A stretch of 64,000 bases of DNA from Endomicrobiales bacterium (GCA_963794945.1 CAWCFT010000009.1:32001-96000); one strand, 5' to 3'; positions 19,565 through 64,000 are shown, counted from the first letter of the stretch. The notes: generated from the sequence alone by a model not told the origin. Translations and numbers: made by a program.

Positions 19565-19565
19565 C

Positions 19566-39552: not shown

Positions 39553-39610
39553 TACACCTCGACAACATTTTAGGAGTGTATTTTGGATCAGGCTTATCAC
39601 TGACCTAGGC

Positions 39611-40438
39611 CTATTTTTCACTCTCGACAAGCCATACGTATTCATCGCACGGGCAAACCTCCGCCTCGCAGGGCATTGGCTTTTCAAACAGCTTAAAATC
39701 ATCATCGAAGAGGTTGCCGATCGGCTTGTGACTTAGAGGCCCGCACCGAGTTACTTTGCCGTCCGCTTTTATAGACGCGTATACCTGGCCAGACCGGCAC
39801 AACTTGCCTTTAGTCTTTTTACCTTCAAGATGGTATTTTACCCTTGAAATATCACCCATGAACGGTTCCATCATCTTACGCTCGGCTTCGCTGTACGAGT
39901 CCGGGTACTTTTTGCCTTCGTATTCCCCCCAGAAAGCCGCGAGGGCGAAATCGATGCCGTTTTCCTTGAATTTATTATAGTAGTGATCTATCTTTCCCAT
40001 ATTGGGAGGATATGCCAGGTAGCAAACACCCCCCTTGAAACCTTTTTTCTTCAACGCCTTGATCTTGCTTAAAAAGCTATCGTAGTTGCTGTCTTTGGGA
40101 TGAAAGTTCATATCCAGCACGACCCTGCCCGGGTCGACTTTCTCGGCAAAAGCGTACATGTCTCCCGAAAGCTGGCTTGTGACCTTGACCGTGTGCAGTT
40201 TTGACAGTTCTGTTATAAGCTCCACAAAGTTAGGGTAGATAGAAGGTTCGCCGCCGGTTATCATGATGTGGCACTCGCCGTGCCTGTCGTAGATCCGCCG
40301 CCACACTTTCATAAGCTCAGGTACCGACATATAGCGGGTTACTTTCTCCATCGTATCCCAGTTCTTGTCGAACCAGCAGTAAGGGCACCTGAAGTTGCAT
40401 TTGTAATGTATGTCCCAAACAAAATTTACTTTTTCCAT
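39611..40438 (-). CDS. Radical SAM protein with C-terminal twitch/SPASM-like domain
   Basis: CNFRCPYC, ITGGEP, CRSG...DGKVTRCG...GN...CEAEVCPC. Confidence 0.9.
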   Translation of the reverse strand: MEKVNFVWDIHYKCNFRCPYCWFDKNWDTMEKVTRYMSVPELMKVWRRIYDRHGECHIMITGGEPSIYPNFVELITELSKLHTVKVTSQLSGDMYAFAEKVDPGRVVLDMNFHPKDSNYDSFLSKIKALKKKGFKGGVCYLAYPPNMGKIDHYYNKFKENGIDFALAAFWGEYEGKKYPDSYSEAERKMMEPFMGDISRVKYHLEGKKTKGKLCRSGQVYASIKADGKVTRCGPLSHKPIGNLFDDDFKLFEKPMPCEAEVCPCDEYVWLVESEK

Positions 40439-40473
40439 TTTACCTCTTTAATTATAGTCTAAACATTACCGCA

Positions 40474-40656
40474 CTAAAACAGCACGTAAATGAAAGGAAC
40501 CACACTACTGCTTTGCGCGAATATTATCAAAAGGCCCAGACCCAACAGAACTACGAACATAGGCACAAGCCACCAGAGTTTCCGTTCCCAGAAAAATTGC
40601 CAGAATTCACCCAGTATCGAGAACCTAGACATAAATTGCTTTAATGTAACCATCAA
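40474..40656 (-). CDS. DUF5989 (SxtK-like) small membrane protein
   Basis: EFWQF..ERKLWWLVP...AQSS.V.PFIY.LF pattern. Confidence 0.75.
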   Translation of the reverse strand: MMVTLKQFMSRFSILGEFWQFFWERKLWWLVPMFVVLLGLGLLIIFAQSSSVVPFIYVLF

Positions 40657-40667
40657 ATTCTCCTTAT

Positions 40668-41780
40668 TTAGAGACCTTGATCTTTGGTTATTTGACCTTT
40701 ACCTGTCTTTATTGCCTCTCCCAGCATAAAACCGTTAGTGCAGGTGAGCCAGCAGTGGCATGTTTTCTTGTTGAAGAACTCTCTTATGTCTTCCGCTTTT
40801 TTCGACTGCCAAATACCGTCAAATCCATCCTCCAGAGCGTTTCCTGCTATAAGGTTTTTATGCACGGGACAGAAATACAGGTTACCGTAAGGGTCCAGCA
40901 TAGCGTATTTCTCTCCGCACGGGCAATCCGGGAAAAACCGTCTTCTTTCGAGTATATATTTCTCTATGTAATGAATGCCCATAAGCATGGACAGCAGGCC
41001 ATCATTGTTTAAAAGCATTGAATAGTCGGTGATGCCTGGAAAGTATTTAGCGATAATACCGTCTATGAGGGCATCCAGCTGGATGCGCACGGTTTCGATG
41101 TGTACATTAGTCCACGCGAACTCTTTTGTCTCCTTCTTCTGCACCATGACCTGGAAGGAGACGTGGTAGCCGTTATCACTGCACCACTGGTATGCTGGAA
41201 GCATTTGCCCACAGTTTTCTGGTGTCAGGGTGAAATTAAGGCTGAAGTAGAGCTCAGGGTACTCTTTTCTTATGAATTTAAGCGTGTTGGATAACAAGCG
41301 AAAACTGTCCTTCCTGCCCCTGATATTATCATGCGCCGCGCCTATGCCGTCCAGCGAACTGCCTATTGACACGTTCTTTAACCCTATTTCATTTTGTATT
41401 TCCCTGATATTATTTAAAGCCAGCTCGGTGTCTACAAGGTTCGAAAGAATCAGTATCTCCACTGCAGGGTAATTATTCCGCAGGTATTTAATTAATTCTA
41501 TCAGGTCTTCCTTAAGCCAGGCTTCCCCACCGCTAAGCACAATATAACGGACGTCTTTTAGCAGCTTAGCATCTTCGATCAACAACTTCCATTGTTCAAC
41601 AGTTAGCTCGTTTTCCGGCTTATTAATATAGCGAAGATTGCACATTATACAGTTAGTATTACATCTGTAGGTCAGCTCGATGTGCAGCTCCCTGGGCGGA
41701 ACGCAGGATACCTTATTTTTTAAAGCGCTTGATTCCAGCACTTTGCCGCATTTTTCCAGGAACTCTCTCGCTTTATTCAT
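40668..41780 (-). CDS. Radical SAM/SPASM-type protein
   Basis: ELTYRCNTNCIMC, SGGE, SLDG...HDNIRG, CPCG...DPYGNLYFC, CHCWLTC. Confidence 0.9.
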   Translation of the reverse strand: MNKAREFLEKCGKVLESSALKNKVSCVPPRELHIELTYRCNTNCIMCNLRYINKPENELTVEQWKLLIEDAKLLKDVRYIVLSGGEAWLKEDLIELIKYLRNNYPAVEILILSNLVDTELALNNIREIQNEIGLKNVSIGSSLDGIGAAHDNIRGRKDSFRLLSNTLKFIRKEYPELYFSLNFTLTPENCGQMLPAYQWCSDNGYHVSFQVMVQKKETKEFAWTNVHIETVRIQLDALIDGIIAKYFPGITDYSMLLNNDGLLSMLMGIHYIEKYILERRRFFPDCPCGEKYAMLDPYGNLYFCPVHKNLIAGNALEDGFDGIWQSKKAEDIREFFNKKTCHCWLTCTNGFMLGEAIKTGKGQITKDQGL

Positions 41781-43352
41781 AGCTTCCGGCGCTCCTAAGG
41801 CATTCGTCCATAAGCTGTCTAGTTAGCTCATTGTTTGATTCCAGGTCGAGTGATCTTTTAAAGCATTCCACCGCCTTTACTGAGTCATGATCGTACTTGT
41901 AATACTGCCCCAGAAGGAACCACTTGTCAGGCTTAACTCTCAGCACTCCGGATGTCTCTGGAAGGCCAAGCTTAAGCGCGGTAGCGCAAAACTCTTCATA
42001 TCTCCTGAACCGTTCAGGGTAATCATTTTTCCCTTCGTCCGATTTCCAAAAGAGATGGTGTTCGCTTCCGGTGATCCCGAATATTCTAGGGTTCTTTCGA
42101 ATATACGTCTCTTTTTCCAAAGTAAAGAATGACTGGCTGGCAAGTATGGAAGTGATATACGGCCTGGCCTTCGTTAGAAACTCAATCGTCTTTTCAAAAT
42201 CCCGTCTGGTCTCGCCCGGGAACCCGAACATTATGTTAATCTGGAAATCTATTCCGGCTTCCCGAGTGTCTTTTAGTATGCCAACGGCTTTTTCGATGTC
42301 GAAGTGCTTATTCATCAGATCAAGTATTCTCTGCGAACCGGATTCTATACCGTACCCGAGCCACACGCATCCTGCCTTTGCCATTTTGTTTAACAGGGCC
42401 CTGCTCATATCTTCGCGGACCATCGCCTGGCCGGCCCACTTGATTTTCGTATTGTTCTCTATCATCTTATCGCAAAAATCCTCAAGGACTTTCAGGTTCC
42501 CGTTAAGAAGCAGTCCGTTAAAATAGAAATAATTGATCCGCGGATAATCACGGACATGCTTTTTTATCTGTTCAAATATTCTGCCACCACTCATCAGTCC
42601 GGTATCTAGGCCAGAAAAGCCTCTCATAACAGAAATGGCAAGCGTTTATACATCCGCGGGAATCTAGTATATCAAGCCTGTGTGGTTCGCTGTATTTATT
42701 ATCCCTTATGTCACTGTCAAAATCACTATAATCCGGAAAGGGCATCACGTCCAGGTCTTTAACATAATCCGGCACGCCGCAATCCTCTACTATTTCCCCG
42801 TCTCGTTTTACCAGAAAACCATTTTCTAAAGGCAGCTCGCCAGCCTTTAAAATCCTCCAGTTTAGCTAACAGGTTTTTGAGCGGTATATCCGCTTCGCCA
42901 GGACACACGTAATCTACGAACGGCTGCTTTATAAAATCCAAGGCCATCTGAGCGCGCGAAGCTTTGTGACCCATGAAAATATTAATAATTCCCGGGTAAT
43001 TTTCCTTGAGCCTTTTTGCTATTTCATAGCTGACAAGTACTGACGGCGTGTGCGTAACGAATACAGCTACTCGCGCGCCTGTGCCGCCGATAAGTTTGAC
43101 GTATTTTTCGAAAACAGTTTCAGGTATGGCCTGGCTGATAAAAGCTTTATTTTCCCAGATTGAATAAAAGTCCCTGTCTTCCCAGTACTTTCGCCTTTCA
43201 GGCTCGGCATCGTGATACATCCTGTTGTTAAGGTCGAAACACGACACCTCGTGCCCGTTACCGCGAAGGTATGCCGCGAAATATCCAAGTATATAGGGCG
43301 GGCAATACCTTACCCACCACGGAGAGTTAATCAAGGCGACTTTTATAGACAT
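41773..43352 (-). CDS. B12-binding radical SAM protein with C-terminal TPR-like helix pair, two frameshifts (~42830, ~42600)
   Basis: N-terminal cobalamin-binding domain (PPYILGY, VDYVCPGEAD), SRGCINACHFC, GIESGSQRIL..MNK, FGFPGET. Confidence 0.85.
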
Positions 43353-51597: not shown

Positions 51598-51649
51598 TGG
51601 TGGAACACGAAGCTCTGACCCTCCGCTGTTGCGAATACTCTAACCAACT
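51598..51649 (-). pseudogene. Degenerate partial copy of the adjacent tRNA-Val
   Basis: Shares tggtg, cgaa.ctctgaccc and tactctaaccaact with 51671-51747 but lacks intact acceptor and anticodon stems. Confidence 0.5.
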
Positions 51650-51670: not shown

Positions 51671-51747
51671 TGGTGCCCGGTAGAGGACTCGAACCTCTGA
51701 CCCCTTCCATGTCAAGGAAGTACTCTAACCAACTGAGCTAACCGGGC
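51671..51747 (-). tRNA. tRNA-Val(GAC) with encoded CCA
   Basis: Acceptor GCCCGGT/ACCGGGC, anticodon arm CTTCC-TTGACAT-GGAAG, T-loop GTTCGAGT. Confidence 0.96.
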
Positions 51748-51898: not shown

Positions 51899-52753
51899 TC
51901 ATCGCGCCAGCCCCCTGCGCCTGCAATTACTTTCGATACAATTTAGGGGAAGCTCTAAAAGCTTTAAGTCATATTTGAAAATATTGCCCAACAGCGGGCC
52001 TTGCAATTGGCCACAAGGCCTCACCGAACCATCGACCCCAATAACTGCAAAATCCATGCCGGCATTACAGCAAGCACCTGATGATTTTTGATTTGTTTCG
52101 AGATTTATCGAACCAGATGAATCTCTTTCTTCACAAAGCATATTCATGTCATCTTGATCCTTACCCCATCTTTCCGTAATATCCATTAATTTTAGTTCTT
52201 CAATTGAATATGCGTGCGGATATTCTTTGCCATTATATTTGCCGCAGAATTGTGTCAAAGCCATATCGATATTTAAACCTTTAAAATACCTCTTGTAGTT
52301 AAGCATTTCTCTCAGTTGAAGTGGATGCGCCAGATAGCATACATTACAGATAAACCCTGCTTTTCGCAGTTTTATGACATTGCCGGCAAATTTAAAGTGA
52401 TCAGTTTTAAGAGGATGAAAAGTGGAATTAATTTCCACCTTTGAAGCGTCATTCTTTAAGATAAACTCTTCCAAAGGGACAGATAGGTTAGTTGTAACAT
52501 GAATAACATGCATTTTACTTAATTTGTATATAATATCAGCAAATCCCGGATAGAGAAAGGGCTCGCCTCCAGTAATGTATATCTTAATCGGTCCGTGCTC
52601 ATCATAAATATTTTCCCACGCGGAGCACACTTCATCCACGCTTCTGTCCGTACCATGCTGCTTTTTGATGTTATCCCATCCTGTTTGCGTAAAAAAGCAA
52701 TATTCACACTTGTAATTGCACTCATATCCCATATCCCAGGTAAATATCTTCAT
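51899..52753 (-). CDS. Radical SAM protein with twitch/SPASM-like C-terminus, paralog of 39611..40438
   Basis: CNYKCEYC, ITGGEP, CCNAG...DGSVRPCG...GNI...CIESNC. Confidence 0.88.
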   Translation of the reverse strand: MKIFTWDMGYECNYKCEYCFFTQTGWDNIKKQHGTDRSVDEVCSAWENIYDEHGPIKIYITGGEPFLYPGFADIIYKLSKMHVIHVTTNLSVPLEEFILKNDASKVEINSTFHPLKTDHFKFAGNVIKLRKAGFICNVCYLAHPLQLREMLNYKRYFKGLNIDMALTQFCGKYNGKEYPHAYSIEELKLMDITERWGKDQDDMNMLCEERDSSGSINLETNQKSSGACCNAGMDFAVIGVDGSVRPCGQLQGPLLGNIFKYDLKLLELPLNCIESNCRRRGLAR

Positions 52754-52848
52754 AAATATCTCTCTTTATCTGATTCAATAATGTTGCAATAACCATTATT
52801 AGAATTGCCGCCGCTCACACGGAAACCGGTGCCAACATGAAGCTAGCG

Positions 52849-53946
52849 TCATTTTGAAAGTTCCACAAAACACATCTCATTATCAGCCGCAATATCTATC
52901 AACTTAAAACCGCTGGCGGCGGCCATTCCCCCGATTTCAGTTATTCCAAGCTTATATTGTATCACATGTTTACTTACAGTCACAGAATCACTGCCAGGAC
53001 CATTATAGGATTTGCCAAGCACGGCCGACCATATCTTTCTCTTTAATACGTTAACTGCCTTCTCTTTGAGGTCGATCCACGAAATCAATATCCTCCCGTT
53101 CTGCGAAAGGCACTTTTTAAGCTTCTTTAATGTTTCAAGCTGCTTTGCGGGATCCAGAATATTAAGCATTCTGGCAAATATGATGTAGTCATATTGTTCA
53201 TCCGAATTAATGTTGTTTAAATTAATAGTTTTCACTTGCTTTCCCTGCCTTATTAATTTTGCGGCTTCTTCGGAATAGCCTCCGGACGACTGGATGTCAG
53301 CTATATTCTTTTCTAGTCCAACGTTTTGTATTTTACTTTCTGTAATCTTCAGGCTTTGCTGCCATTTTTCTAAAGATACGCCCATATTTGACCGCAATAA
53401 TATATAATTTTTATAATAGCTTAAATCGGTTTCAGGTAAAATTAACGATAGTATTGCTTTAATATTAAGGCGGAACCGCTTCAAAACAAACGAAATATAA
53501 GATAAATTTAATATATTAATCGTGATAGAACAATATAGCAACAAAATACTTATGCTTTTCCCGATCGGCGAATCGAGGTTAATTTCATATCCATTCTTTT
53601 TTATCCTCACAACTCGGCCCAGGATATCATCATAAATAACAAGCCTATCATCTTTAGCCACGTTGTTATCGCCCTTTGTGCAGAAACAAGGCCCGTTTTT
53701 GCCTTTAACCTTTTTTATAACTCTATGCGCGGTATTGATGTCCAACGACCTGTCAATATTTTCATAAACAACTATATCTCCAACACGAATTATATCGGGA
53801 GATACCTTTTTAACAAAAAGTGAATCGCCGGATATCAGAAGGGGCCACATACTTCTCCCTTTTGACTTAAATATTACCTCATTTCCTTTTACAAGCGACT
53901 CTTTACCCAGTTCGTTCAAAGTCTTCCGAAATTTTGCTGAATCCAT
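52849..53946 (-). CDS. S26/S24 signal-peptidase-like domain fused to a degenerate class I methyltransferase-like domain
   Basis: GRSMWPLL..GD, GDIVVY, AHRV, TKGDNN..D; hydrophobic segment; then YDYIIF...L.KLKKCLSQNGRILI. Confidence 0.72.
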   Translation of the reverse strand: MDSAKFRKTLNELGKESLVKGNEVIFKSKGRSMWPLLISGDSLFVKKVSPDIIRVGDIVVYENIDRSLDINTAHRVIKKVKGKNGPCFCTKGDNNVAKDDRLVIYDDILGRVVRIKKNGYEINLDSPIGKSISILLLYCSITINILNLSYISFVLKRFRLNIKAILSLILPETDLSYYKNYILLRSNMGVSLEKWQQSLKITESKIQNVGLEKNIADIQSSGGYSEEAAKLIRQGKQVKTINLNNINSDEQYDYIIFARMLNILDPAKQLETLKKLKKCLSQNGRILISWIDLKEKAVNVLKRKIWSAVLGKSYNGPGSDSVTVSKHVIQYKLGITEIGGMAAASGFKLIDIAADNEMCFVELSK

Positions 53947-54004
53947 TATAACGCCTCTATGCCCATGCTTATAGCTTCTATGATACTCTAAAGGACTGAA
54001 TTTC

Positions 54005-54925
54005 CTATATTAATAATACACTATACTCATTTGTAATTTTCTTAATAATCATTTTTTCAATTGTTTTACTGAACTTCATAGGGCAATATCCGCTGTAGCA
54101 GGACCTGGATATTGTGATAATGGCAGGGTTGATAGCTTTATTTTTCAGCGTGTCGAATATTCTATTAATCTCTCCGTTTATAGCTTCGGTATCCTGAAAA
54201 TATTCTTTCACTCTGGACTTTTTATGGCTAACAACAACAATATACCTTCCATTGTCTTTAGAGAATTCTAACTTAATATTATCGTACAACAAATATTTAT
54301 TTTTCGATAATAATTCCCTTTTTAAATATTGCCCGCGCGTTATTTCAATAGTGTGAAACAGCTCATTGCCGACAGAATCCCTGCAGGCAAAATAGTCCAG
54401 ATCAATATCAAGCAATACTTTTTTATTTTGCGGAATATGATCCATATCACATATATGTGAATCGAAATGTTTTATGTCGGGGAAAGCTTTGGTGAACATT
54501 TTGTTTTTTATAGGCGGTTCACTGCTTTTCTCGCACTTAATTATTTTCCCTTCCCCAAAAACAGAATAGACGATCATTTTGTGGTCTTCGGGTTTAATTT
54601 TTCTCCATTTTGGAAATACAAAATAAGCGTTTTTTACTATTCCGCCAAGAATGGCCGGTAGGATAAAACTTCCTATATCGATTTGCATATCACCGCGGAT
54701 AAAATCATTATAATAACCCGCGTAATCGGCGTATTTATTCTTTGGTATGTAAATCGATTTTGACAGCGTATTCGGCGTACCCATATCGCTATGCGCATCC
54801 AAGTGCAATATATCCAACGGCTCATTAATATTATTTTTATTTTTTTCTTTATGCCAGCAATAAAATGATTCATTGTGTTCGTCAACAATATAGACTGGAA
54901 TTCTATTATTTTTTTTGGTTATCAT
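54005..54925 (-). CDS. UPF0489 arginase-fold protein, candidate peptide arginase
   Basis: VDEHNESF..W, HLDAHSDM, LDIDLDYF, ITISRS..SGY metal-ligand motifs. Confidence 0.75.
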   Translation of the reverse strand: MITKKNNRIPVYIVDEHNESFYCWHKEKNKNNINEPLDILHLDAHSDMGTPNTLSKSIYIPKNKYADYAGYYNDFIRGDMQIDIGSFILPAILGGIVKNAYFVFPKWRKIKPEDHKMIVYSVFGEGKIIKCEKSSEPPIKNKMFTKAFPDIKHFDSHICDMDHIPQNKKVLLDIDLDYFACRDSVGNELFHTIEITRGQYLKRELLSKNKYLLYDNIKLEFSKDNGRYIVVVSHKKSRVKEYFQDTEAINGEINRIFDTLKNKAINPAIITISRSCYSGYCPMKFSKTIEKMIIKKITNEYSVLLI

Positions 54926-55186
54926 AATTTAATTCCTTATACATACCGCCTATTAATTTCGAGGTTGAATCCCAATAAGTCAAACTAAATGCTAAAATTT
55001 GTGAAGAGTGAGAGAGTAGAATAAATATCTATATTACTCATTAGTAAACCCGCACACAATATATTTTTGTTATTAGATCAGGAAGGGAACTTTCGAGCAT
55101 TTTTTCATCTCTATTTATGCCAAATGGTGACCCTTTTATCAGAGCCCTCTGAAATCTATTATGTTATCAGATAGTATTTAGACGCT

Positions 55187-56299
55187 TTACACTTTTAAGT
55201 CGGTATTTAAAACCCTCGTTTCAGGGAAGAGACCTTCATCGCGGGCAATTTTACAGAAGACAAAAGGCGCTAAAAACGATTTTTGCTCCCAATAAGCTTC
55301 CGCCCTGCATTTTCCAAGGCAGAAATTCTTCATCATGCACTTCCCGCAAATTCCCTCAAGCTTTAAAGGCACGTCTTTTCTGATAATATTAAGAATCTTG
55401 TTATTTTCCCACACCTGCTTAAGTTTTGTGTCCTTAATATTGCCCATATTGAGTTCTTTAACGACACTACCTATTCCGCAAATTGATATTGTCCCATCAC
55501 CCGTAATACCGATTATAGACTTTATTCCGCATACGCACTTTTCAGTTTTGAGCTCTTCTATTGTTTTAAACGCCGGAGGAATATCAAAACACAGCTTGAG
55601 TTTTTTCTTAAGCCTTGGTCTGGACATATAGCTTTTCATTTTTTTATTTGTTTTGAGTATTTCGCCAATAGTAAGCAATTCGCCTTTACTCTTCATAATA
55701 TCCGCGCGGGAAACATTCATTATCGGGTTTATCTTCAGGCTGTTCACCCGCAAGGCCGCGCAAAGATCTATCATTTGTTTCATTTTACTTTTGTTTTCGT
55801 TCCAAAGGCTGCATATTACTTGTAAACTTAGCCCGGGGTTATATTTTCTCAACTGCCTTATTCCGTTTACAGCATTTTTGAATGACCCTTTTACATTCCT
55901 GAGTTTTTCGTGTGTTTGTTCATCAGGCCCGTCCAATGATACCGCTACTTGCATCACTTTATAATCTCTTACAGCCTTAGCCTCTTTCTCGCCGATCAGG
56001 GTGCCGTTTGTTTCAATATGCATGTTCAATTGATTCTTTTTGATCCATTTAAACAGCTCTATAATATCTTTTCTTAAAAAAGGTTCTCCGCCGGTGATCT
56101 TCACTGTTCTAAGCCCCAGCTTTTTGGCTTGTTTTAGCGCGTTTATTATATAACGCAGCTCAATGTCTTTCTTGTTGCCGCCATTGTCATCAGGCATACC
56201 AGTAAAATCGGGGTTTATCCAGCAGTGCCTGCAGTTAAGGTTACAGTATTTTGAAAAATATAAATACACTGATTTTAAAAGATATTTTTTTGTTTTCAT
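55187..56299 (-). CDS. Radical SAM/SPASM peptide maturase, ScmF-like
   Basis: YLYFSKYCNLNCRHCWI.P, KITGGEP, IETNG, CG...G.ISICGIG, LEGICGKC.....CLGKC.A. Confidence 0.85.
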   Translation of the reverse strand: MKTKKYLLKSVYLYFSKYCNLNCRHCWINPDFTGMPDDNGGNKKDIELRYIINALKQAKKLGLRTVKITGGEPFLRKDIIELFKWIKKNQLNMHIETNGTLIGEKEAKAVRDYKVMQVAVSLDGPDEQTHEKLRNVKGSFKNAVNGIRQLRKYNPGLSLQVICSLWNENKSKMKQMIDLCAALRVNSLKINPIMNVSRADIMKSKGELLTIGEILKTNKKMKSYMSRPRLKKKLKLCFDIPPAFKTIEELKTEKCVCGIKSIIGITGDGTISICGIGSVVKELNMGNIKDTKLKQVWENNKILNIIRKDVPLKLEGICGKCMMKNFCLGKCRAEAYWEQKSFLAPFVFCKIARDEGLFPETRVLNTDLKV

Positions 56300-56302
56300 C
56301 GC

Positions 56303-57337
56303 TTAGTTTTCCCTTTTCCAGCAGTAAAGTTCAGTATTTTTAATCCCTCCGGGATAATGGTACGGGTAACACCTGTGCCCCCAGAAACAGATATACTGAT
56401 GCTCGCATTCAACGCATTCCGGCATTTTTGTAATATCAACATGCAGATCCTTCCTGAAACTCCGCAGCACTTTTGAATTTTTCCAAATCTCCTTAAAGCT
56501 GTTTTTGTAAAGGCTCCCGGCTTTTACTTCCCAAATAACTTCACACGGAGTCACTGATCCGTCAGGCCGAATAGCGCACCTGGAAGTTGCCGCACCGCAG
56601 GGTGGGACTGTTATTTCCTTCATTTTAGGTTTAAACTTGCCAAGCCCTTTCAATTTATCATTCTGCTGCAGGTACGAGCCCGTTATAAAACCCGGGTATA
56701 GTTTCGAAAGCTTGACAATTTCTTCGATCGCTTTCCGCTCTTCATCAGGTGAAACATACACTTCCTTAAGGAAACACGCTGCGTTCCCGCCGTAAAATAC
56801 GTGGTTAAACCTGACACTGCTTGCTCCGATCTCTTTTCCAAGCTTTACAACTTTTTCTATATCTCCGATATTAAGCTTGGTCACGGTAAACGAAAGAAGC
56901 GCCTGCCCGCCGTATTTGATAATATTTTTTATTCCTGCTACGGCGCGGTCAAACGTATTTTTGCCTCTTTGCCTTTCATGCGTACCTTTTGCGCCGTCTA
57001 TGGACACAACGTAAGACCTAATATTAAAATCTTTTATTAGCATTTTTGCCATTTTATCCGTCATAAGAGTGGCGTTAGTGTTCATCGAGATCTTAATTTT
57101 ATACTTTCGGAACCTTTCAAGAAGAGCCGGCAGGTCCTTCTTTACAAGCGGTTCCCCGCCAAAAATTGAGACATTGAATACTTTTGCCCGGCCCACTTCG
57201 TCGATAACGCTAAGCATCTTTTCAGTGGACATATCTCTTTCCCCCCAGCTTTGCTTGACTCCGCAATGCCTGCATCGTTGGTTGCATTTGCCTGTTACAG
57301 TGAAACATAATGACGTAGGTGCGGAATATATCTTCAT
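56303..57337 (-). CDS. Radical SAM/SPASM peptide maturase, ScmE-like
   Basis: AP.S....TGKCNQRCRHC, GGEP, NTNA, SIDG..HERQRG, CGA....AIRPDG.VTPC, CVEC.....C....C. Confidence 0.85.
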   Translation of the reverse strand: MKIYSAPTSLCFTVTGKCNQRCRHCGVKQSWGERDMSTEKMLSVIDEVGRAKVFNVSIFGGEPLVKKDLPALLERFRKYKIKISMNTNATLMTDKMAKMLIKDFNIRSYVVSIDGAKGTHERQRGKNTFDRAVAGIKNIIKYGGQALLSFTVTKLNIGDIEKVVKLGKEIGASSVRFNHVFYGGNAACFLKEVYVSPDEERKAIEEIVKLSKLYPGFITGSYLQQNDKLKGLGKFKPKMKEITVPPCGAATSRCAIRPDGSVTPCEVIWEVKAGSLYKNSFKEIWKNSKVLRSFRKDLHVDITKMPECVECEHQYICFWGHRCYPYHYPGGIKNTELYCWKREN

Positions 57338-57533
57338 CGCTTATCTCCTCTCAAACACTAACTTCCTGCTTAAAGACAAACTTTTTGAGTTGTGGCACAG
57401 GCTCTAAATTCGAAGGGTTCCATGTCGCTGGAGTGATTGAACAAGCTTAGCCTTTGCTTTATCCGCTTCAAAGTGTATTATTTCTGTCTCCGGCCATAAA
57501 CAGTTCCAGCAGTCGTTGACTAAACCATTGATA

Positions 57534-57797
57534 TTAATCCGCCCGCAACAGTATCTTTGATTTAACCAGGTCTTTAATTATGTTATTAATATCATCTTTA
57601 ATGTCATCTATTTTAGCCACGTAGGCCTTTGACAGCTCACCGTAAATATTTTCAATGTCCAGCCCTTTGTTTACCATTTGCCATACCTCACTGCCTGTCT
57701 TGTTAAGGTAACAATTTTCATTTGTATCAATGTTTACTATCACAACCTCGCCGTCAATATCCCGCCAAAGAACATCCTTGTTAATTTTATATTTCAT
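57534..57797 (-). CDS. PqqD family / RiPP recognition element (RRE)
   Basis: WRDIDGEVVIV, YLNKTGSEVW, I...LS..Y, DDI..II.DL...KIL; 87 aa. Confidence 0.9.
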   Translation of the reverse strand: MKYKINKDVLWRDIDGEVVIVNIDTNENCYLNKTGSEVWQMVNKGLDIENIYGELSKAYVAKIDDIKDDINNIIKDLVKSKILLRAD

Positions 57798-58074
57798 TTC
57801 CCGCCTCCAGCAAGCCGTCCTTTTTCATTTTTTTAATGAATAATAATATATCCGGCCTTATCTTTTTATTGTTTTTGCCGTACTTATCTGTTGCTTTTGC
57901 GATAATATCTTCGATGCTGTATTTTCCGTTGCAAAACCCGCATATATATGCGCCGGTTTCATTGAGCGTTTCCATACTCCCTGTTTCCGAATTAAATACA
58001 ATAGCCTCTTTGCCTTCGCGCCTGAAAACTATTTTTGGGTTTATAACGAAATAAATATTTTTCCTACTCATCAA
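57787..58074 (-). CDS. PqqD family / RRE (ScmD-like)
   Basis: NPKIVFRRE..EAIVFNSETG...LNETGAYI...CNG.YSIEDI, DILLFI..M...GLL; GGAGG RBS. Confidence 0.9.
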   Translation of the reverse strand: MMSRKNIYFVINPKIVFRREGKEAIVFNSETGSMETLNETGAYICGFCNGKYSIEDIIAKATDKYGKNNKKIRPDILLFIKKMKKDGLLEAGNEI

Positions 58075-58329
58075 AACCTCCTGTGCCGCTTTATGTAAAT
58101 AATTTCTTGAATCGGCTTTTTAATAAACCTCGATTTTTTATTCCTGTTCCACCTAACCTGTCATTCAGCAATGAATTGCCGCACGTTAAGTGTTATAAAC
58201 AGCAGCCTTTTTCATGGAATGTTGAAAATCCGTTTATGGTTTAGCGGCTGGACACATTTTTAAACTGGGCTCACAGTTATTGTTAAGAATTGGTATTTTA
58301 TCTTATGGATTCTTTTAAGCCAAAAAATA

Positions 58330-58539
58330 TTAGTCCAGCGGAGCTGTGCCTGGCCCACATGTGCTAAAAGGATAGCTACCTCGGACACATTCCCCTTCCG
58401 AAACACCACTACTACCACCAACGCACAGCGGAAGCGCACTGTATCCGGATGCTTCAAACTTGTAGTCTGTTTTGTTCCCGAATAGTATCTTTTCAGGTTT
58501 TATCCATTTCATCTTGCTTTGCTTCTTCCTGCTTTTCAT
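58330..58539 (-). CDS. RiPP precursor P1 (3 x CxxG)
   Basis: MKSRKKQSKMKWIKPEKILFGNKTDYKFEASG-YSALPLCVGGSSGVSEGECVRGSYPFSTCGPGTAPLD; GGGAGA RBS. Confidence 0.85.
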   Translation of the reverse strand: MKSRKKQSKMKWIKPEKILFGNKTDYKFEASGYSALPLCVGGSSGVSEGECVRGSYPFSTCGPGTAPLD

Positions 58540-58559
58540 CTTTCTTTCTCCCAAAACAA

Positions 58560-58619
58560 CTTACACCATTGGTTAGCTGTTGTGTTATGACAAGATTGCT
58601 GGAAGTTTTCAACATCTGT
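58560..58619. repeat. 60-bp spacer repeat, copy A (between P2 and P1)
   Basis: 49/60 identical to 59631-59690 by manual alignment. Confidence 0.8.
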
Positions 58620-58837
58620 CACCATTCTATTATAGGCCTGTTACCAGTATTGCAAGTGTTTACTCCGACAGCGGCACCACCGCCATTACATATATAGCCT
58701 GCAAAACCTTCACCACCGGTGACGCACTGAAAATCGTATCCGGATGCTTCAAACTCGTAGTCTATTTTGTTCCCAAATATTATCTTTTCGGGTTTTATCC
58801 ATTTCATCTTTTTATGTTTCCTGATGTTTTTATTCAT
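58619..58837 (-). CDS. RiPP precursor P2 (3 x CxxG)
   Basis: MNKNIRKHKKMKWIKPEKIIFGNKIDYEFEASG-YDFQCVTGGEGFAGYICNGGGAAVGVNTCNTGNRPIIEW. Confidence 0.85.
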   Translation of the reverse strand: MNKNIRKHKKMKWIKPEKIIFGNKIDYEFEASGYDFQCVTGGEGFAGYICNGGGAAVGVNTCNTGNRPIIEW

Positions 58838-58890
58838 TTTTCCCAATCCTGGAATCTGGCCTGCAATGGCCAGGCATCTCGCCCGTACTG

Positions 58891-59178
58891 CTACTGCGCT
58901 ATCGGCGCAACAGTAACAATTTGACCGTCGCTACACGCATTCCTGCTAGGGCCAACAGCGCTGATACCTAGGCTACAATCATACAAAGCAGTGTTACCGT
59001 ACGTACAATCTGACGCATTGCCGCTACCACTAATACAACCGAGACCAGCAACACAAGATGCCGCATCGCCAATACCAGTGGAACAATTGGCAGCTACAAT
59101 CATTGCTTCATTCCCAAAGGAGATTTTTTCAGGTTTTATCCATTTTATTTGTTTTTGTTTCCTAACGTTTTTATTCAT
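58891..59178 (-). CDS. RiPP precursor P3 (6 x CxxG)
   Basis: MNKNVRKQKQIKWIKPEKISFGNEAMIVAA-NCSTG..CVAG..CISG..CTYG..CSLG..CSDG.. Confidence 0.85.
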   Translation of the reverse strand: MNKNVRKQKQIKWIKPEKISFGNEAMIVAANCSTGIGDAASCVAGLGCISGSGNASDCTYGNTALYDCSLGISAVGPSRNACSDGQIVTVAPIAQ

Positions 59179-59376
59179 TCTTTATCCAATTACTAGATTA
59201 TTGAAAACCCCAACAAGGCTCAACTTGATCATCCGGACTTCATCTACATTCACTCGCCCTCTTTCTATATTTGTTTCAATTAAATCAAGACAGGGCCCAA
59301 TTTACCTGTCATGCAATCGTAATTATTCTAGGGTTAGAATAAACATCACCACTTAAGCTGAAGAAAGATTATAAAG

Positions 59377-59613
59377 CTACCTCAACATGGGGTTGCCGCC
59401 TCCAGTACAATCGCTAGAAGGGTACGAACCGCCTGAACAGTGCAAGCCTTGGTTACCTGGGGTACACGAAAAAGCGCCTCCACCACTACTGCATTGGTTA
59501 GCATCACTGCCGCCGGAAGTACAATTAGCAGATGAAATAATTGAGTCATTACCGAATACTATCTTTTCAGGTTTTATCCATTTCGTTTTACTTTGCATCT
59601 TTCTGTTTTCCAT
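59377..59613 (-). CDS. RiPP precursor P4 (5 x CxxG)
   Basis: MENRKMQSKTKWIKPEKIVFGNDSIISSA-NCTSG..CSSG..CTPG..CSGG..CTGG.NPMLR; AAGGAG RBS. Confidence 0.85.
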   Translation of the reverse strand: MENRKMQSKTKWIKPEKIVFGNDSIISSANCTSGGSDANQCSSGGGAFSCTPGNQGLHCSGGSYPSSDCTGGGNPMLR

Positions 59614-59630
59614 TATTTCTCCTTCAATAG

Positions 59631-59690
59631 CTTACGCCATTAGTAAACTGTTGTGCCCTGACAAAATTGCCGGAAGTTTTCTATATCTGT
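59631..59690. repeat. 60-bp spacer repeat, copy B (between P5 and P4)
   Basis: 49/60 identical to 58560-58619. Confidence 0.8.
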
Positions 59691-59695
59691 TAAAT

Positions 59696-59899
59696 TTATT
59701 CTGCAGCACCGACGCCCGGAGTGCAAGGACTTCCAGTATCGTCGGAACCACCGTTACAAAGAAGAACAGCACGATTGCCAGGGCCACACTGATGGCCGAT
59801 ATCGTATCCAGCTGCTGTAAACTCGTGGCCCAAATTGTTCCCGAATACTATCTTTTCAGGTTTTATCCATTTTATCTTACTTTGATCTTTTTTTGTCAT
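59696..59899 (-). CDS. RiPP precursor P5 (3 x CxxG)
   Basis: MTKKDQSKIKWIKPEKIVFGNNLGHEFTAAG-YDIGHQCGPGNRAVLLCNGGSDDTGSPCTPGVGAAE; GGAGA RBS before ATG 59899. Confidence 0.85.
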   Translation of the reverse strand: MTKKDQSKIKWIKPEKIVFGNNLGHEFTAAGYDIGHQCGPGNRAVLLCNGGSDDTGSPCTPGVGAAE

Positions 59900-60019
59900 T
59901 TTTCTCCAAGTTGCTTGTGCTTGTTCTGAACACAACCTTTTGCTGTATCTCCTTGGCAAAGCCACATCAGTCATCTGTATGGATACAGCGTACGCAAAAA
60001 GTTCCGCGGATATACGCCG

Positions 60020-60271
60020 CTATAACATTTTTATAGGGCGAATACCTGGGTTGCAAGGGCTGCCATCTCCACCGCCTGTCCAGCAAGCGGTATAATCAGC
60101 GCCATTGCCAGAGCTACACATATTACCAGACGGTTGAGTCGAGCCATCTTGACAACCTGCAGGTATAGTGTATCCAGCTGCATTAAAATTGTCACCCATA
60201 TCGTTCCCAAATGTGATTTTTTCAGGCTTTATCCATTTCATGTTATTTTGATTCTTTCTGTTCTTTGTCAT
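60020..60271 (-). CDS. RiPP precursor P6 (4 x CxxG)
   Basis: MTKNRKNQNNMKWIKPEKITFGNDMGDNFNAAG-YTIPAGCQDG..CSSG..CWTG..CNPGIRPIKML. Confidence 0.85.
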   Translation of the reverse strand: MTKNRKNQNNMKWIKPEKITFGNDMGDNFNAAGYTIPAGCQDGSTQPSGNMCSSGNGADYTACWTGGGDGSPCNPGIRPIKML

Positions 60272-60296
60272 TTTCTTTTCCAATATTATTTATAAT

Positions 60297-61567
60297 CACT
60301 TCTGTCCGGTTAAAAAGCGAACGCCATTGTTAGTTGGCGGTCTGTGTTTTTGATTTTAGGCAGCAATCGATCATTCAAATTAAGTAAGTCAATGAGATTG
60401 AGGCGTTCAAGAAGCGTTTCCTGAATGACTTTGTGCAGGTAGAACAGTGAATATTTATATTTTGACTGATATTTGATGTAAGACAGAAGCAAGTAGTAGC
60501 ACATGGCAATCCAGATCTGCGTAAGCACAGCGTTCTTTGAAGTGCCAAAGAATGTTTTGATTTTAAGGTTCTGCTTGATCCACTTGAAAAAGACTTCAAC
60601 TTGCCAGCGGGCTTTATAGATACCAGCAATAGTAGAAGCGGCAAGCTTGAAGTTGTTGGTAATAAAAACAAGCAGTTTATCGGTTTGCTTGTCATAGTAA
60701 CGGATCAAGCGCAGTTCTTTGGGATAATCCTGCTTCTGATAAAAGCCGTTCAAGGCGATAATTTCATCTGAAATTACGCTGTTTTTTGATGATTCAGGAT
60801 GCTGTCCGGAAACAGTGTAATTGATGTTGTCTTTGGCTCTGGTAACGAAGAAAGCGCCTACTGTGTCTATTGAATTAAACCAGGCAAAGTCTATATAGCC
60901 CTTGTCCATGCAGTAGATGCTGTCCGGCACAATGTCAAAAGAAGAACGGGCAACGGTTATTTCGTGCTTTTTGGCATCTGTGACAACCATGAACGTGGGT
61001 ATCTGCCCGGCATGGTCTAACTGGCAATGCAGTTTTATAGCCCCTTTGGTAGTGCGGAATTTTGCCCATGAAAACATTGACAGGCACAAGTCAATGACTG
61101 TGGCGTCAAAAATGAACAATGGGTTTTTAAACTTGAATTTGTGTGTAGGGGTTATATTCTTACAGCGTTCAAGCAAGGCATAAAACAACCCTTCATATAT
61201 GCGGTAGTCGCGTTTCTGGTTGGCATCGGCAAGAGTAGAACGGCGCACAATGGCAAGGCCGACATGGTAGAGCTTTCCGGCTTGCGCCAGAAAAGCATTA
61301 ACAATATCACGCAAGCTGTCCTTGCCGCTGATTTGGGCATAAAGCATGACTGTTAGTTGTTTCCAGCAATTGAAGGTTTTGACGTATCTGTCCCCGAAAT
61401 GACGAGAAACGAGGTTTTCAAAACGATGTCTCGGAATAAACGTTTGCAATTGGTTCATGATAGTGTTATAATGCATCTTATCAATCCTCCGTCAGTAGAT
61501 TTGTTCCTTTGCAGAAACATTCTACCTGATCGGGGGATTTTATTCAAATTTTAACCGGACAGGTGTG
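60297..61567 (-). mobile_element. IS4-family insertion sequence, 1271 bp, with 9-bp target site duplication
   Basis: Terminal IRs CACTTCTGTCCGGTTAAAA / TTTTAACCGGACAGGTGTG (17/19 match); direct repeat ATTTATAAT at 60288-60296 and 61568-61576. Confidence 0.93.
60310..61476 (-). CDS. IS4-family DDE transposase with DUF4372-type N-terminus
   Basis: SLRDI, RSTLADAN, FDATVIDL, IKLH, DKGY, FVTRAK, YKARWQVEVFFKWIKQNL (YREK signature). Confidence 0.93.
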   Translation of the reverse strand: MHYNTIMNQLQTFIPRHRFENLVSRHFGDRYVKTFNCWKQLTVMLYAQISGKDSLRDIVNAFLAQAGKLYHVGLAIVRRSTLADANQKRDYRIYEGLFYALLERCKNITPTHKFKFKNPLFIFDATVIDLCLSMFSWAKFRTTKGAIKLHCQLDHAGQIPTFMVVTDAKKHEITVARSSFDIVPDSIYCMDKGYIDFAWFNSIDTVGAFFVTRAKDNINYTVSGQHPESSKNSVISDEIIALNGFYQKQDYPKELRLIRYYDKQTDKLLVFITNNFKLAASTIAGIYKARWQVEVFFKWIKQNLKIKTFFGTSKNAVLTQIWIAMCYYLLLSYIKYQSKYKYSLFYLHKVIQETLLERLNLIDLLNLNDRLLPKIKNTDRQLTMAFAF

Positions 61568-61645: not shown

Positions 61646-62749
61646 TCAAGTATTATCAATTATTCCATATAACTTTTTCATCGCCGTTTCGAACGTTTTT
61701 TCGCCGAAACGCCTTTTTGCCATATTAAAGGCGTTAAATGACAGCTTGTTCCAAAGCATTTCGTTATTATATACTTTTACTACCTTTTTCGCAAACTCTT
61801 CCGGCTTATCAGCGACTAAAACCTCTCTGCCGTGTTTCGCGCCTATGCCTTCGACACCGATCGAACTCGTCACAACCGGGGTCCTTGAGATCATTGAATC
61901 AACTATCTTCTTCTTTACACCCGCCCCATAACGCATGGGGCATACAAAAACACGGTATTTGCCGAGCTCATCAAAAATATCATCTACGCGCCCATGGGTC
62001 AGTAAACCTCCGCCCATTCTATGAAAATGGTCCGCCCCATTGCCTGCCACATGGAATTTTATGCTGGGGATCTTTTTTTTGATCAAAGGAAATATTTTTC
62101 TCATAAAATATTTTATAGTATCGTCATTGGCCCCTTCATTTCCGTATTGCCCGAAAAACACAAGGCCGGACCTTTCCGCGAACTTTCTCGGAACTGTTCC
62201 CTTTTCAGGAACTTCCGTGGGCGTAGGTATGATCATTATTCTTTTGCCTGGAAGTTCTTTCCTGAATATATCCCTTTCGGGCTTTGATATTGCGATTAGC
62301 GTGTCAGCCAGCTTGAGCCCTTCAAGTTCATTAATTTTACTTTTTCTAAAAAAAGAATCACGGCTTTTTACGCCGTTTATTTGCATTTCTCTTCTTTGCC
62401 TGATGTATGTGATCTCATGAGTGTCAACAATAATGCGGTTAAATAACGGCAGGCAGCTGCGGAAACCGGCTATGCAGTAATATGACCTGAATATCGCTGT
62501 TTTTATTCTGTTTTTTAAAATAAACCTGTTGATGTTTGCAACATGATTCTTATCCAACGGAAAAACAATTTTTACTCCCATATCTATAAGCGCTTTGCCG
62601 CTTAAACCACTATTCCATCGGACGGTGAGCGGCAGCAGAAACACTCTGTACCTTTTTGCCAGGCTTTTACAAAGGCGGTAAACCCTCCAGTCTCCTGCAT
62701 TAGTTTCAAAATGTGGGATATGAGTGACGACAACAAGGATGCTTTTCAA
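61646..62749 (-). CDS. GT-B glycosyltransferase (GT4-like)
   Basis: VDTHE, AIS..E, FFG....N.D, PMRYGAGVKKKIVDSM..RTPVVTSSIGVEG. Confidence 0.85.
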   Translation of the reverse strand: MKSILVVVTHIPHFETNAGDWRVYRLCKSLAKRYRVFLLPLTVRWNSGLSGKALIDMGVKIVFPLDKNHVANINRFILKNRIKTAIFRSYYCIAGFRSCLPLFNRIIVDTHEITYIRQRREMQINGVKSRDSFFRKSKINELEGLKLADTLIAISKPERDIFRKELPGKRIMIIPTPTEVPEKGTVPRKFAERSGLVFFGQYGNEGANDDTIKYFMRKIFPLIKKKIPSIKFHVAGNGADHFHRMGGGLLTHGRVDDIFDELGKYRVFVCPMRYGAGVKKKIVDSMISRTPVVTSSIGVEGIGAKHGREVLVADKPEEFAKKVVKVYNNEMLWNKLSFNAFNMAKRRFGEKTFETAMKKLYGIIDNT

Positions 62750-62782: not shown

Positions 62783-63670
62783 TTAACTTGCATAATTCCG
62801 CGCCGTCCGCCAGTGGTGGGCCTCTACAACAGAGGCACGGCCTTCTGTTTGCTGTTTTTCATAAATGCTGTAAAATCTTCTCCCTGCTTTTCCCCACTTC
62901 TTTAAGAATTTCTTCTTGGCCGCGCGGCACACCGCGTCTATTCTTCCGTATTTGTGCTTGAATATTCCGGACTTCGTGGCTTTGCTGATAAAATGAAATA
63001 TAAAAACATTCATGGCATTAACCAGTTTGTACCCTGCCTTTTTTGCCCTGAACGAATATTCAAGGTCTTCACCGCTGCATGGATAGAACCTTTCGTCAAA
63101 CAGGCCTATTTTGTCGACAACGCTTCGTTTTATCAGCATGCACATTCCGTGAATATAAAGCGCCTCATCATACTGCCCTTTTCTACTCAGCGATAACATC
63201 ACCGCGGCTTTTTGGATTTCTTTTATATTTCTAAACCCGGCGATAGCTGGAAAAAGGCCATAATCGTTTATGACATTATTGCTCGCGCAGCCAACAATGC
63301 CTGTCTTTTTATCGCTTTCCGCGCAGCTTACCAGGCCCTCAAGCCAGTTAATAGTCACTATTACGTCATTGTTCAGATAACAAACATATTTACCTTCGGA
63401 TATATATATCCCGCGGTTTAACGCCCCGGATACGCCAAGGTTCCGTTTGCTTATTATCGGCTTAAACGCCCGTATCGAGCTCCTGGCTCCAACGGCCAGC
63501 CTGTTTTTAAGGGTTTTGAAATACTTTCCGGTGCCATCGGATGAACCGTTATCAATTACTATCAGTTCAAAAGGGTATGATGTGTATTTAAGTATGCTGT
63601 TAATGCACATCTTTGTGAATTTAAGCTCATTGAAACAAGGTATTATTATCGAGACAATATTTTCTGTCAT
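62783..63670 (-). CDS. GT2 glycosyltransferase
   Basis: SIIIPCFN, IDNGSSDGT, NLG...A.NRG, LNNDV, GMCMLI, IGLFDERF, EDLEYSFR. Confidence 0.92.
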   Translation of the reverse strand: MTENIVSIIIPCFNELKFTKMCINSILKYTSYPFELIVIDNGSSDGTGKYFKTLKNRLAVGARSSIRAFKPIISKRNLGVSGALNRGIYISEGKYVCYLNNDVIVTINWLEGLVSCAESDKKTGIVGCASNNVINDYGLFPAIAGFRNIKEIQKAAVMLSLSRKGQYDEALYIHGMCMLIKRSVVDKIGLFDERFYPCSGEDLEYSFRAKKAGYKLVNAMNVFIFHFISKATKSGIFKHKYGRIDAVCRAAKKKFLKKWGKAGRRFYSIYEKQQTEGRASVVEAHHWRTARNYAS

Positions 63671-63780: not shown

Positions 63781-64000
63781 TTAAAGTATTTTAAAAACAA
63801 CCTCGCTTTGCTTTTTTTCCTTAATTCTGACACTTTGCTCATATTGCCCTGTTATTTCATCTATATTTCCAAAACCCAGCTGTTCACCGTGATTTATGTA
63901 AAGCGCCCTTTTACAGTATTTTTTTATACTGCCGATCCCGTGCGAAATGAACAATATCGTGCTGCCACTATTAAGAAGCCTTTCGATCGCGCCGATGCAC
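63781..64000 (-). CDS. C-terminal end of a Wzt/TagH-like polysaccharide ABC transporter ATPase (runs off the window)
   Basis: Manual translation CIGAIERLLNSGSTILFISHGIGSIKKYCKRALYINHGE...KIL*, containing the ABC H-loop. Confidence 0.7.
   Translation of the reverse strand, partial: CIGAIERLLNSGSTILFISHGIGSIKKYCKRALYINHGEQLGFGNIDEITGQYEQSVRIKEKKQSEVVFKIL

Follow-up and report, generated by a model that had tools for sequence, protein, structure and literature searches.

A divergent SynChlorMet-type cassette with six CxxG-repeat precursors and a peptide arginase family gene in an Endomicrobiales bacterium

RESULTS

A six-precursor cassette

A 64,000-nucleotide stretch of DNA from an Endomicrobiales bacterium (GCA_963794945.1 CAWCFT010000009.1:32001-96000; here, the window) carries six short genes for CxxG-repeat peptides (P6 to P1), two PqqD-family recognition elements (RREs) for peptides made ribosomally and then modified post-translationally (RiPPs), and a pair of radical S-adenosylmethionine (SAM)/SPASM enzymes. 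Judged by sequence, these genes are a divergent SynChlorMet (SCM) cassette, a kind named in NCBIfam. Together with a peptide arginase family gene, the cassette looks like an insertion into a native Elusimicrobiota glycosyltransferase (GT)/RRE locus, and we lean toward this overall reading with the chemistry proposed below.

An earlier note on this DNA had listed 13 genes. All 13 open reading frames (ORFs) were found on the minus strand as listed, in the order P6-P5-P4-P3-P2-P1, PqqD, PqqD, two radical SAM/SPASM genes, UPF0489, a fusion of S26 peptidase and methyltransferase-like domains (S26-MTase), and a third radical SAM gene (rSAM3) (Table 1). The domain calls were reproduced as well: Pfam finds two PqqD domains, two Radical_SAM plus SPASM proteins, UPF0489, and the third Radical_SAM domain, and the S26 domain passes TIGR02228. 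The observation of six precursors, two RREs, and a SPASM pair is confirmed.

The six related short ORFs (67 to 95 residues), with starts set at ATGs preceded by a ribosome-binding site, are real genes. The leader motif KWIKPEKIxFGN is present in all six and varies only at x. Among its 11 fixed codons, the third base varies in seven and the first two bases in none, and this pattern of exclusively synonymous change indicates translated genes under purifying selection. All 24 Cys residues across the six precursors lie in CxxG, with spacings mostly of 9 to 12 residues (range, 6 to 14). The cores are divergent; the overall identity of the other precursors to P6 is 37 to 52%. The P2 and P5 regions share 70% DNA identity over 381 bp, and the six genes apparently arose by tandem duplication.

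Relatives of the leader are scarce. In a six-frame translation of the genome, a looser leader pattern gives 18 matches, while the full motif occurs only in P6 to P1. A leader-profile search of 1.84 billion representatives returned 11 matches, namely, five of these precursors, one outside relative (P0126), and five long proteins, of which the two inspected are both repeat proteins and were set aside. The same profile found nothing in the genomes of five relatives (0/5). For P4, the ESM Atlas gives a weak match to unnamed clusters at 0.91 to 0.92, with recognition below threshold.

The enzyme pair is a divergent SCM pair

ScmF and ScmE are the best NCBIfam matches of the two SPASM enzymes, the former by 175 bits, with both scores below the cut-offs (Table 1). 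True members of the family exceed those cut-offs (578.7 bits for ScmE and 539.4 bits for ScmF in locus L033), and the shortfall of the present pair therefore marks a divergent SCM branch. Omnitrophota ScmE proteins encoded next to ScmF score 163 to 167 bits on TIGR04250, likewise below 400, and are 47 to 49% identical to the ScmE-like enzyme here. The SCM models reportedly stem from TIGRFAM work by Haft.

Both RREs pass the Pfam PqqD model and score low on the ScmD model TIGR04248 (RRE1, 28.4 bits; RRE2, 20.2 bits; cut-off, 100). In the RRE tree, RRE1 lies toward ScmD, on a long branch. The nearest relative of RRE2 is the PqqD protein of a GT locus in genome G006 (38.6% identity; pair support 99/95, with a long branch and 101 columns). 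P4 scores 18.6 bits on the ScmA precursor model TIGR04252 (cut-off, 35), and the other five precursors do not match it; at an E value of 1e-5, this model also misses all four of the CxxG peptides taken from other ScmF loci. The combination expected of a locus that would work like an SCM cassette (an adjacent ScmE-ScmF pair, an RRE, and a CxxG precursor) is present. The likeness to ScmE/ScmF proposed in the earlier note is thus borne out by the profile search, whereas its description of the system as undescribed does not hold, since NCBIfam already has the ScmA model.

In the ScmF tree, the enzyme nests among proteins of ScmF loci, in a small subclade of metagenomic proteins that is sister to Omnitrophota (FastTree support, 97 to 99; composition flagged). 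A search of 60 genomes of the same order found no ScmF, nor did one of 300 others from the phylum. This absence, together with the Omnitrophota-sister placement, points to import.

The locus has no ScmC kinase, nucleotidyltransferase, or peptide ATP-binding cassette (ABC) exporter, and ScmC (TIGR04249) has no match in the genome, which is 86% complete. Kinase-like homologs occur only away from the locus, on contig C14 and at window positions 37522-38526. The surroundings of a nucleotidyltransferase match (C2:29821) and of an MsbA-like ABC protein (C1:379271) are unrelated, and we did not count either as part of the pathway.

CxxG peptides accompany ScmF in other loci

We surveyed 160 ScmF loci, comprising the best 80 of at least 492 genome relatives and the best 80 of at least 530 metagenome relatives; the scan was queried with an ScmF alignment, as a single ScmF sequence returned nothing. 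Filtering for a CxxG-rich tail behind an aromatic-x-x-Pro leader yielded 114 distinct peptides in 101 of the 160 loci, and such peptides are present in 49 of the 59 loci flanked by 4 kb or more on both sides. Homologous enzyme pairs do not, then, routinely lack such peptides, in keeping with the earlier claim that the CxxG peptides are the substrates. Among the 101 loci, 85 have one precursor, 14 have two, one has three, and one has six. The largest array seen, in a looser listing, is that of SCM locus L130, with nine CxxG precursors of 108 to 144 residues, one of them cut by the contig end. A Trp leader is found in 6 of the 114 family precursors.

Gene content was counted in 58 well-flanked ScmF loci: ScmE is present in 54, PqqD in 55, a kinase-like gene in 52, S26 in 39, a nucleotidyltransferase in 34, and an ABC gene in 29. 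Kinase, nucleotidyltransferase, and ABC genes are all absent in five of the 58, as they are here.

Proposed chemistry of the peptides

From gene identity, purifying selection, and co-occurrence, which are observed, we infer the following chemistry (papers are cited by PMC number). The WxxP leader very probably docks on an RRE, and the SPASM pair probably links each Cys thiol oxidatively as a thioether. ScmF would be the likelier thioether-forming partner. More tentatively, the bond may go to the alpha carbon of Gly(i+3), giving three to six unnested four-residue sactionine rings per peptide.

The gene features expected of a sactipeptide system are present: a SPASM radical SAM enzyme with an intact CxxxCxxC motif and auxiliary-cluster Cys residues, plus a Cys-rich precursor. 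The ScmF structure model (predicted local distance difference test score, 92) finds SkfB, SuiB, CteB, and PqqE as its top folds. Its seven invariant SPASM Cys residues align with those of CteB, whose open auxiliary site binds the substrate Cys. Among the 114 family precursors, Cys has a single fixed partner, Gly at +3; this result is partly circular in that the filter required CxxG. There is precedent for such linkages: in streptosactin, one of two unnested four-residue rings is a Cys31-Gly34 sactionine (PMC8172795, PMC9389541), and Cys-to-Gly sactionines are known in StsA (PMC10288494). Pairing of enzymes has a precedent in TrnC and TrnD (PMC12093266).

The thioether might instead reach another carbon, such as Ala or Pro at +6, a side-chain carbon as in a ranthionine, or an upstream residue, with Gly at +3 merely permitting a turn. 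Position +6 is the next most constrained after Gly+3 in the family (Ala, 40%; Pro, 24%; together, 64%), and the closest structures include the ranthisynthase CteB. Within P6 to P1, however, position +6 varies and Gly+3 never does; no Asp or Glu acceptor is conserved at offsets -6 to +10 from Cys in the family; and the PapB-type ranthipeptide model NF047865 gives about 75 bits, against a cut-off of 340. We regard this alternative as unlikely.

Slightly less probable still is that no thioether is formed at all and that the enzymes catalyze epimerization, cleavage, or heterocyclization, with the Cys residues left free to bind metal or to form disulfides in a small solenoid of repeats. The strict Cys period of about 10 residues (225 spacings of 10 and 120 of 11 in the family) would suit a repeat fold, and two distinct conserved radical SAM enzymes suggest two reactions. 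Moreover, the eight SPASM-region Cys residues of ScmE could mean a fully ligated cluster; this assignment presumes the anSME pattern, and the eighth candidate is 40% conserved, with a late Cys shifted. Odd Cys counts (3, 3, 3, and 5) disfavor simple disulfide pairing, and TrnC and TrnD, which work as a complex in which a single active site is essential, show that two radical SAM enzymes can share one thioether-forming job (PMC12093266).

To return to the sactionine proposal, we consider it about an even chance that the S26 domain cleaves off the leader, and slightly better than even that the arginase turns the single tail Arg into ornithine.

The peptide arginase

Besides passing PF12640, the arginase matches the OspR structure 8BRP (E = 1.7e-25), to which it aligns with conservative changes, and keeps the three metal-binding motifs given in PMC12703449. 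On NF052474, the FlmR/OhkR model, it scores 161.7 bits (cut-off, 350). OspR, FlmR, and OhkR are likewise PF12640 arginases of precursor-bearing clusters; among the arginase precursor types in the accessible text of PMC12703449, the CxxG/ScmA type is absent.

No arginase was seen in the 160 surveyed SCM loci, and searches that lacked a positive control gave none in 50 of the 80 ScmF genomes and none in 401 genomes around G062. Relatives occur in 5 of 300 genomes of the phylum; the four loci inspected lie by radical SAM, PqqD, or S26 genes, as read from the sequence, and contain no CxxG peptide. Matches on viral contigs reach only 22 to 27% identity. In genome G226, a 1699-residue S26-containing fusion lies beside a PF12640 arginase, GTs, and PqqD (L238:7782-12881).

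Each of the six precursor tails has exactly one Arg, in three cases at +5 of a CxxG. As a mark of an arginase substrate, this is a hint only. In the family, any Arg occurs in 60 of 114 cores, and Arg stands at +5 in 8 of 631 cases.

A native glycosyltransferase/RRE locus as host

Residues S32 and H74 of the S26 domain, which we take to be the catalytic dyad, are invariant (12 of 12 sequences). The methyltransferase half scores 19.8 bits in Pfam against a cut-off of 30 and has a degenerate motif I; its structure model matches class I methyltransferase folds (E = 3.6e-8). Long matches to S26-MTase occur in 16 same-order genomes, all of which are among the 17 with rSAM3; these genomes are kin and not independent. 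rSAM3 has eight matches in its own genome and is present in 17 of 120 genomes of the class; the names of its relatives place the genome in the Elusimicrobiota, order Endomicrobiales. Since S26-MTase and rSAM3 are kept in relatives without ScmF, they need not serve these peptides; S26-MTase is probably from the host locus, and rSAM3 is probably not dedicated to SCM.

Loci of this kind are seen in other Elusimicrobiota. S26-MTase orthologs in G003 and G006 align over 371 and 306 columns, respectively, beside an rSAM3 ortholog, PqqD, GT2 and GT4 genes, a GT2-PqqD fusion, B12-type radical SAM genes, and a short Lys-rich YxKP peptide. A similar GT/PqqD locus in G183 has a permease that is 42.6% identical to the Wzm-type permease upstream here. 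All three loci share GT2, GT4, PqqD, and the S26 fusion with the present locus; they differ in their GT2-PqqD fusions, in their peptides of about 27 to 37 residues, in the B12-type enzymes of G003 and G006, and in having no CxxG peptides, ScmF, or arginase. We propose that the SCM cassette (P6 to P1, RRE1, perhaps RRE2, ScmE, and ScmF) and the arginase were inserted into such a locus, which would have contributed GT2, GT4, the ABC pair, S26-MTase, and rSAM3. Across ScmF to rSAM3, the GC content is down at 33 to 39%, compared with 47% for thrS and pheT.

The earlier note had assigned one enzyme set to all six peptides. This is only partly right: it is weakened by S26-MTase and rSAM3, which are present in 16 and 17 genomes of the order, respectively, whereas ScmF was found in none of 300 genomes of the phylum. 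It had also seen no exporter: no peptide ABC gene is present at the locus, but a Wzm/Wzt-type ABC pair (names that reflect our reading of the sequence and not a profile match) lies directly upstream of the GTs. These upstream genes (IS4, GT4, GT2, the Wzt-type ATPase end, and the Wzm-type permease) are absent from that note. Exporters of the Wzm/Wzt type usually transport glycans, and a glycan is the more likely substrate here.

Could all of these genes form one integrated pathway, in which the cross-linked peptides also receive (methyl)ornithine, GT4/GT2 sugars, an rSAM3 modification, and ABC export? From tRNA-Cys (C9:98684) to tRNA-Val(GAC), all genes (a frameshifted radical SAM gene, the ABC pair, GT2, GT4, IS4, the SCM core, the arginase, S26-MTase, and rSAM3) are co-oriented, and without IS4 the GT4 end would lie less than 100 bp from P6. 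Related loci carry GT2-PqqD fusions, so the GTs there are probably peptide directed, and a pattern search of this genome did not find the Lys-rich precursor of the GT/PqqD module. The enteropeptin pathway unites a sactisynthase, an arginase, and a methyltransferase; it differs in that its arginase is a PF00491 protein and its methyltransferase depends on Fe-S (PMC12703449). In addition, the ScmF-subclade protein P0007 and the rSAM3 relative P0195 each list a 12,236-bp JGI contig, perhaps one and the same. Against integration, S26-MTase and rSAM3 persist in 16 to 17 relatives that lack SCM and arginase, motif I of the methyltransferase is degenerate, S26-MTase matches in SCM loci (54 of 160) never run past residue 178, GT2 here has no fused RRE, and the ABC pair is of the glycan type. 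We therefore think a single pathway improbable, and the same applies to the action of the methyltransferase-like domain, rSAM3, or the GTs on these peptides. The full hybrid outcome, in which the imported SCM pair and arginase work on a native peptide-glycosylation locus and yield six poly-sactionine peptides with ornithine or N-methylornithine and sugars for Wzm/Wzt export, is a still longer shot.

Several observations on relatives of the host genes stand apart from the cassette. In loci L222 to L230, S26-MTase genes are orphans amid housekeeping genes in genomes with rSAM3-family arrays, possibly a dispersed system. Tandem rSAM3-family arrays occur in many same-order genomes; in the present genome, G000:C13:3429-20197 holds about 14 radical SAM genes, with the rSAM3 family alternating with B12-type genes and no precursor or RRE seen. 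In three Elusimicrobiota genomes, short Lys-rich YxKP peptides (L198:3241-3354, L201 at about 2290-2385, and L231 at about 17090-17170) are encoded next to GT2-PqqD fusions and PqqD; they are a candidate glycopeptide RiPP family.

Points against the reading, and the IS4 element

A number of findings weigh against the reading preferred here, that of an SCM cassette and arginase in a native GT/RRE locus. Literature searches turned up no biochemistry on SCM cassettes of any sort, and no second copy of the exact architecture was found. The closest solved folds to ScmF are only 15 to 19% identical and mixed in chemistry. S26 peptidases are ordinary SCM members, the S26-domain tree leaves their origin here unresolved, and 9 of the 11 same-order S26-MTase loci examined lie among housekeeping genes, the native arrangement being seen in 2 of 11. 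A second RRE is normal in Omnitrophota SCM loci. As for the arginase, P0126, the sole outside close precursor from the leader-profile search, has no Arg in its core; the position of the single Arg in the tails is not conserved, the count was made post hoc, and paralogs are not independent. Finally, IS4 may have cut the cassette from its promoter.

The insertion sequence IS4 (1,271 bp) is bounded by terminal inverted repeats, is flanked by a 9-bp duplication, and stops 25 bp short of the ATG of P6. Five further copies in the genome are more than 99.4% identical, and six near-identical copies indicate recent movement. With kinase, nucleotidyltransferase, and peptide ABC genes missing as in only 5 of 58 SCM loci, the cassette might be intact but silenced or decaying. 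A promoter scan performed at chance level (40 sites versus 30.8 +/- 6.3 in shuffles), as did a terminator scan, and four DNA runs returned only short pieces, mainly of IS4 and tRNA, and no IS-free allele. On the other hand, all 13 frames are open, catalytic motifs are intact, and leader substitutions are synonymous only, all of which makes silencing doubtful in our view.

Features of the locus and its surroundings

The features are collected in Table 1. Just downstream of tRNA-Val, at about 51605-51649, lies a degenerate partial copy of it. A fourth radical SAM gene with a C-terminal Cys cluster lies outside the window at G000:C9:97500-98460; a single frameshift, within a run of G at the GGE motif, interrupts it.

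Table 1. Annotated features of the locus (window coordinates)
Feature	Position	Strand	Remarks
P6 precursor	60020..60271	-	83 aa, 4 CxxG, one tail Arg
P5 precursor	59696..59899	-	67 aa, 3 CxxG, one tail Arg
P4 precursor	59377..59613	-	78 aa, 5 CxxG, C-terminal Arg; weak ScmA match
P3 precursor	58891..59178	-	95 aa, 6 CxxG, one tail Arg
P2 precursor	58619..58837	-	72 aa, 3 CxxG, one tail Arg
P1 precursor	58330..58539	-	69 aa, 3 CxxG, one tail Arg
RRE1, PqqD family, ScmD-like	57787..58074	-	PF05402, 49.4 bits
RRE2, PqqD family	57534..57797	-	PF05402, 39.9 bits
ScmE-like radical SAM/SPASM enzyme, 344 aa	56303..57337	-	TIGR04250, 158.9 bits (cut-off, 400)
ScmF-like radical SAM/SPASM enzyme, 370 aa	55187..56299	-	TIGR04251, 317.5 bits (cut-off, 400)
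Peptide arginase family (PF12640/UPF0489)	54005..54925	-	PF12640, 62.9 bits (cut-off, 27)
S26 (Ser/His-type) peptidase fused to class I methyltransferase-like domain	52849..53946	-	TIGR02228, 63.2 bits (cut-off, 51.85)
Third radical SAM (rSAM3), STM4011-like	51899..52753	-	Model match; one of 8 paralogs in genome
IS4 element	60297..61567 (transposase 60310-61476)	-	NF033592, 287 bits (cut-off, 115)
GT4 glycosyltransferase	61646..62749	-	Pfam; 36% to G003-locus GT4
GT2 glycosyltransferase	62783..63670	-	Pfam; 37-44% to G003/G006 GT2 domains
Wzt-type ABC ATPase, 3' end	63781..64000	-	Full gene G000:C9:95781-96563; Wzm-type permease precedes, outside window
tRNA-Val(GAC), downstream boundary	51671..51747	-	Rfam matches are tRNA only

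Elsewhere in the window, positions 37522-43352 hold a kinase-like gene (weak ScmC-like match, E = 3e-10), a GT2-like gene, an rSAM3 paralog that is conserved across the order, a small protein gene, a radical SAM gene, and a B12-type radical SAM gene in pieces; it is possible that the kinase-like gene acts in trans. Positions 18986-23457 contain, by eye, adenylation-domain (nonribosomal peptide synthetase-like), acetyltransferase-like, and phosphopantetheinyl-transferase-like genes. A second RiPP-like cluster, perhaps of GeoRSP likeness, lies at G000:C14:51090-53636 and comprises a kinase-like gene, PqqD, a radical SAM/SPASM gene, and a 48-residue peptide that has three Cys residues and a leader of the YxxP type.

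DISCUSSION

SCM cassettes (NCBIfam TIGR04248 to TIGR04252: ScmD, ScmC, ScmE, ScmF, and ScmA) and the present locus have in common a SPASM pair, a PqqD-type RRE, a CxxG precursor with an aromatic-x-x-Pro leader, and an S26 peptidase. The locus differs from them in its sub-cut-off scores, lack of ScmC at the locus, six precursors, Trp leader, arginase (0 of 160 surveyed loci), and GT/RRE setting.

Among characterized systems, the type 2 sactipeptide streptosactin (GggA/GggB) resembles the proposal in its unnested four-residue Cys(i)-(i+3) rings (PMC8172795, PMC9389541); it differs in having one enzyme, two rings, and a streptococcal quorum-sensing context. GggB has been placed near ranthisynthases (PMC10288494). 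Ruminococcin C and thuricin CD likewise combine several precursors (five for ruminococcin C) with two radical SAM maturases, but they form nested hairpin rings and lack CxxG repeats, and the ruminococcin C cores are 70 to 87% identical, whereas the cores here are divergent. PMC13692751 deals with a different, archaeal system.

Literature searches on SynChlorMet, ScmE/ScmF, CxxG with SPASM, and the TIGR numbers found no paper, the full radical SAM dataset of PMC10288494 and subscription papers lying outside the search; one supplement of PMC10288494 contains no Scm term. A search on loci of the G003/G006/G183 type (RRE, GT, B12, and S26) likewise found no paper. The SCM kind is already catalogued. 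What is new here, in a single example, is the sixfold precursor array, the Trp leader, the arginase, the loss of the kinase, nucleotidyltransferase, and exporter, and the hybrid setting.

SCM cassettes are frequent among uncultured anaerobes, as the numbers of relatives in the two scans indicate. With six natural substrates of three to six repeats, a pair of small RREs, and a pair of enzymes, and free of a confounding kinase or nucleotidyltransferase, this locus offers a compact test bed. It could reveal whether CxxG repeats are converted into a series of four-residue sactionine rings. Peptide arginases, which serve as tools in peptide engineering, would also gain a new precursor type, and the locus illustrates the swapping of RiPP modules into RRE/glycosyltransferase loci.

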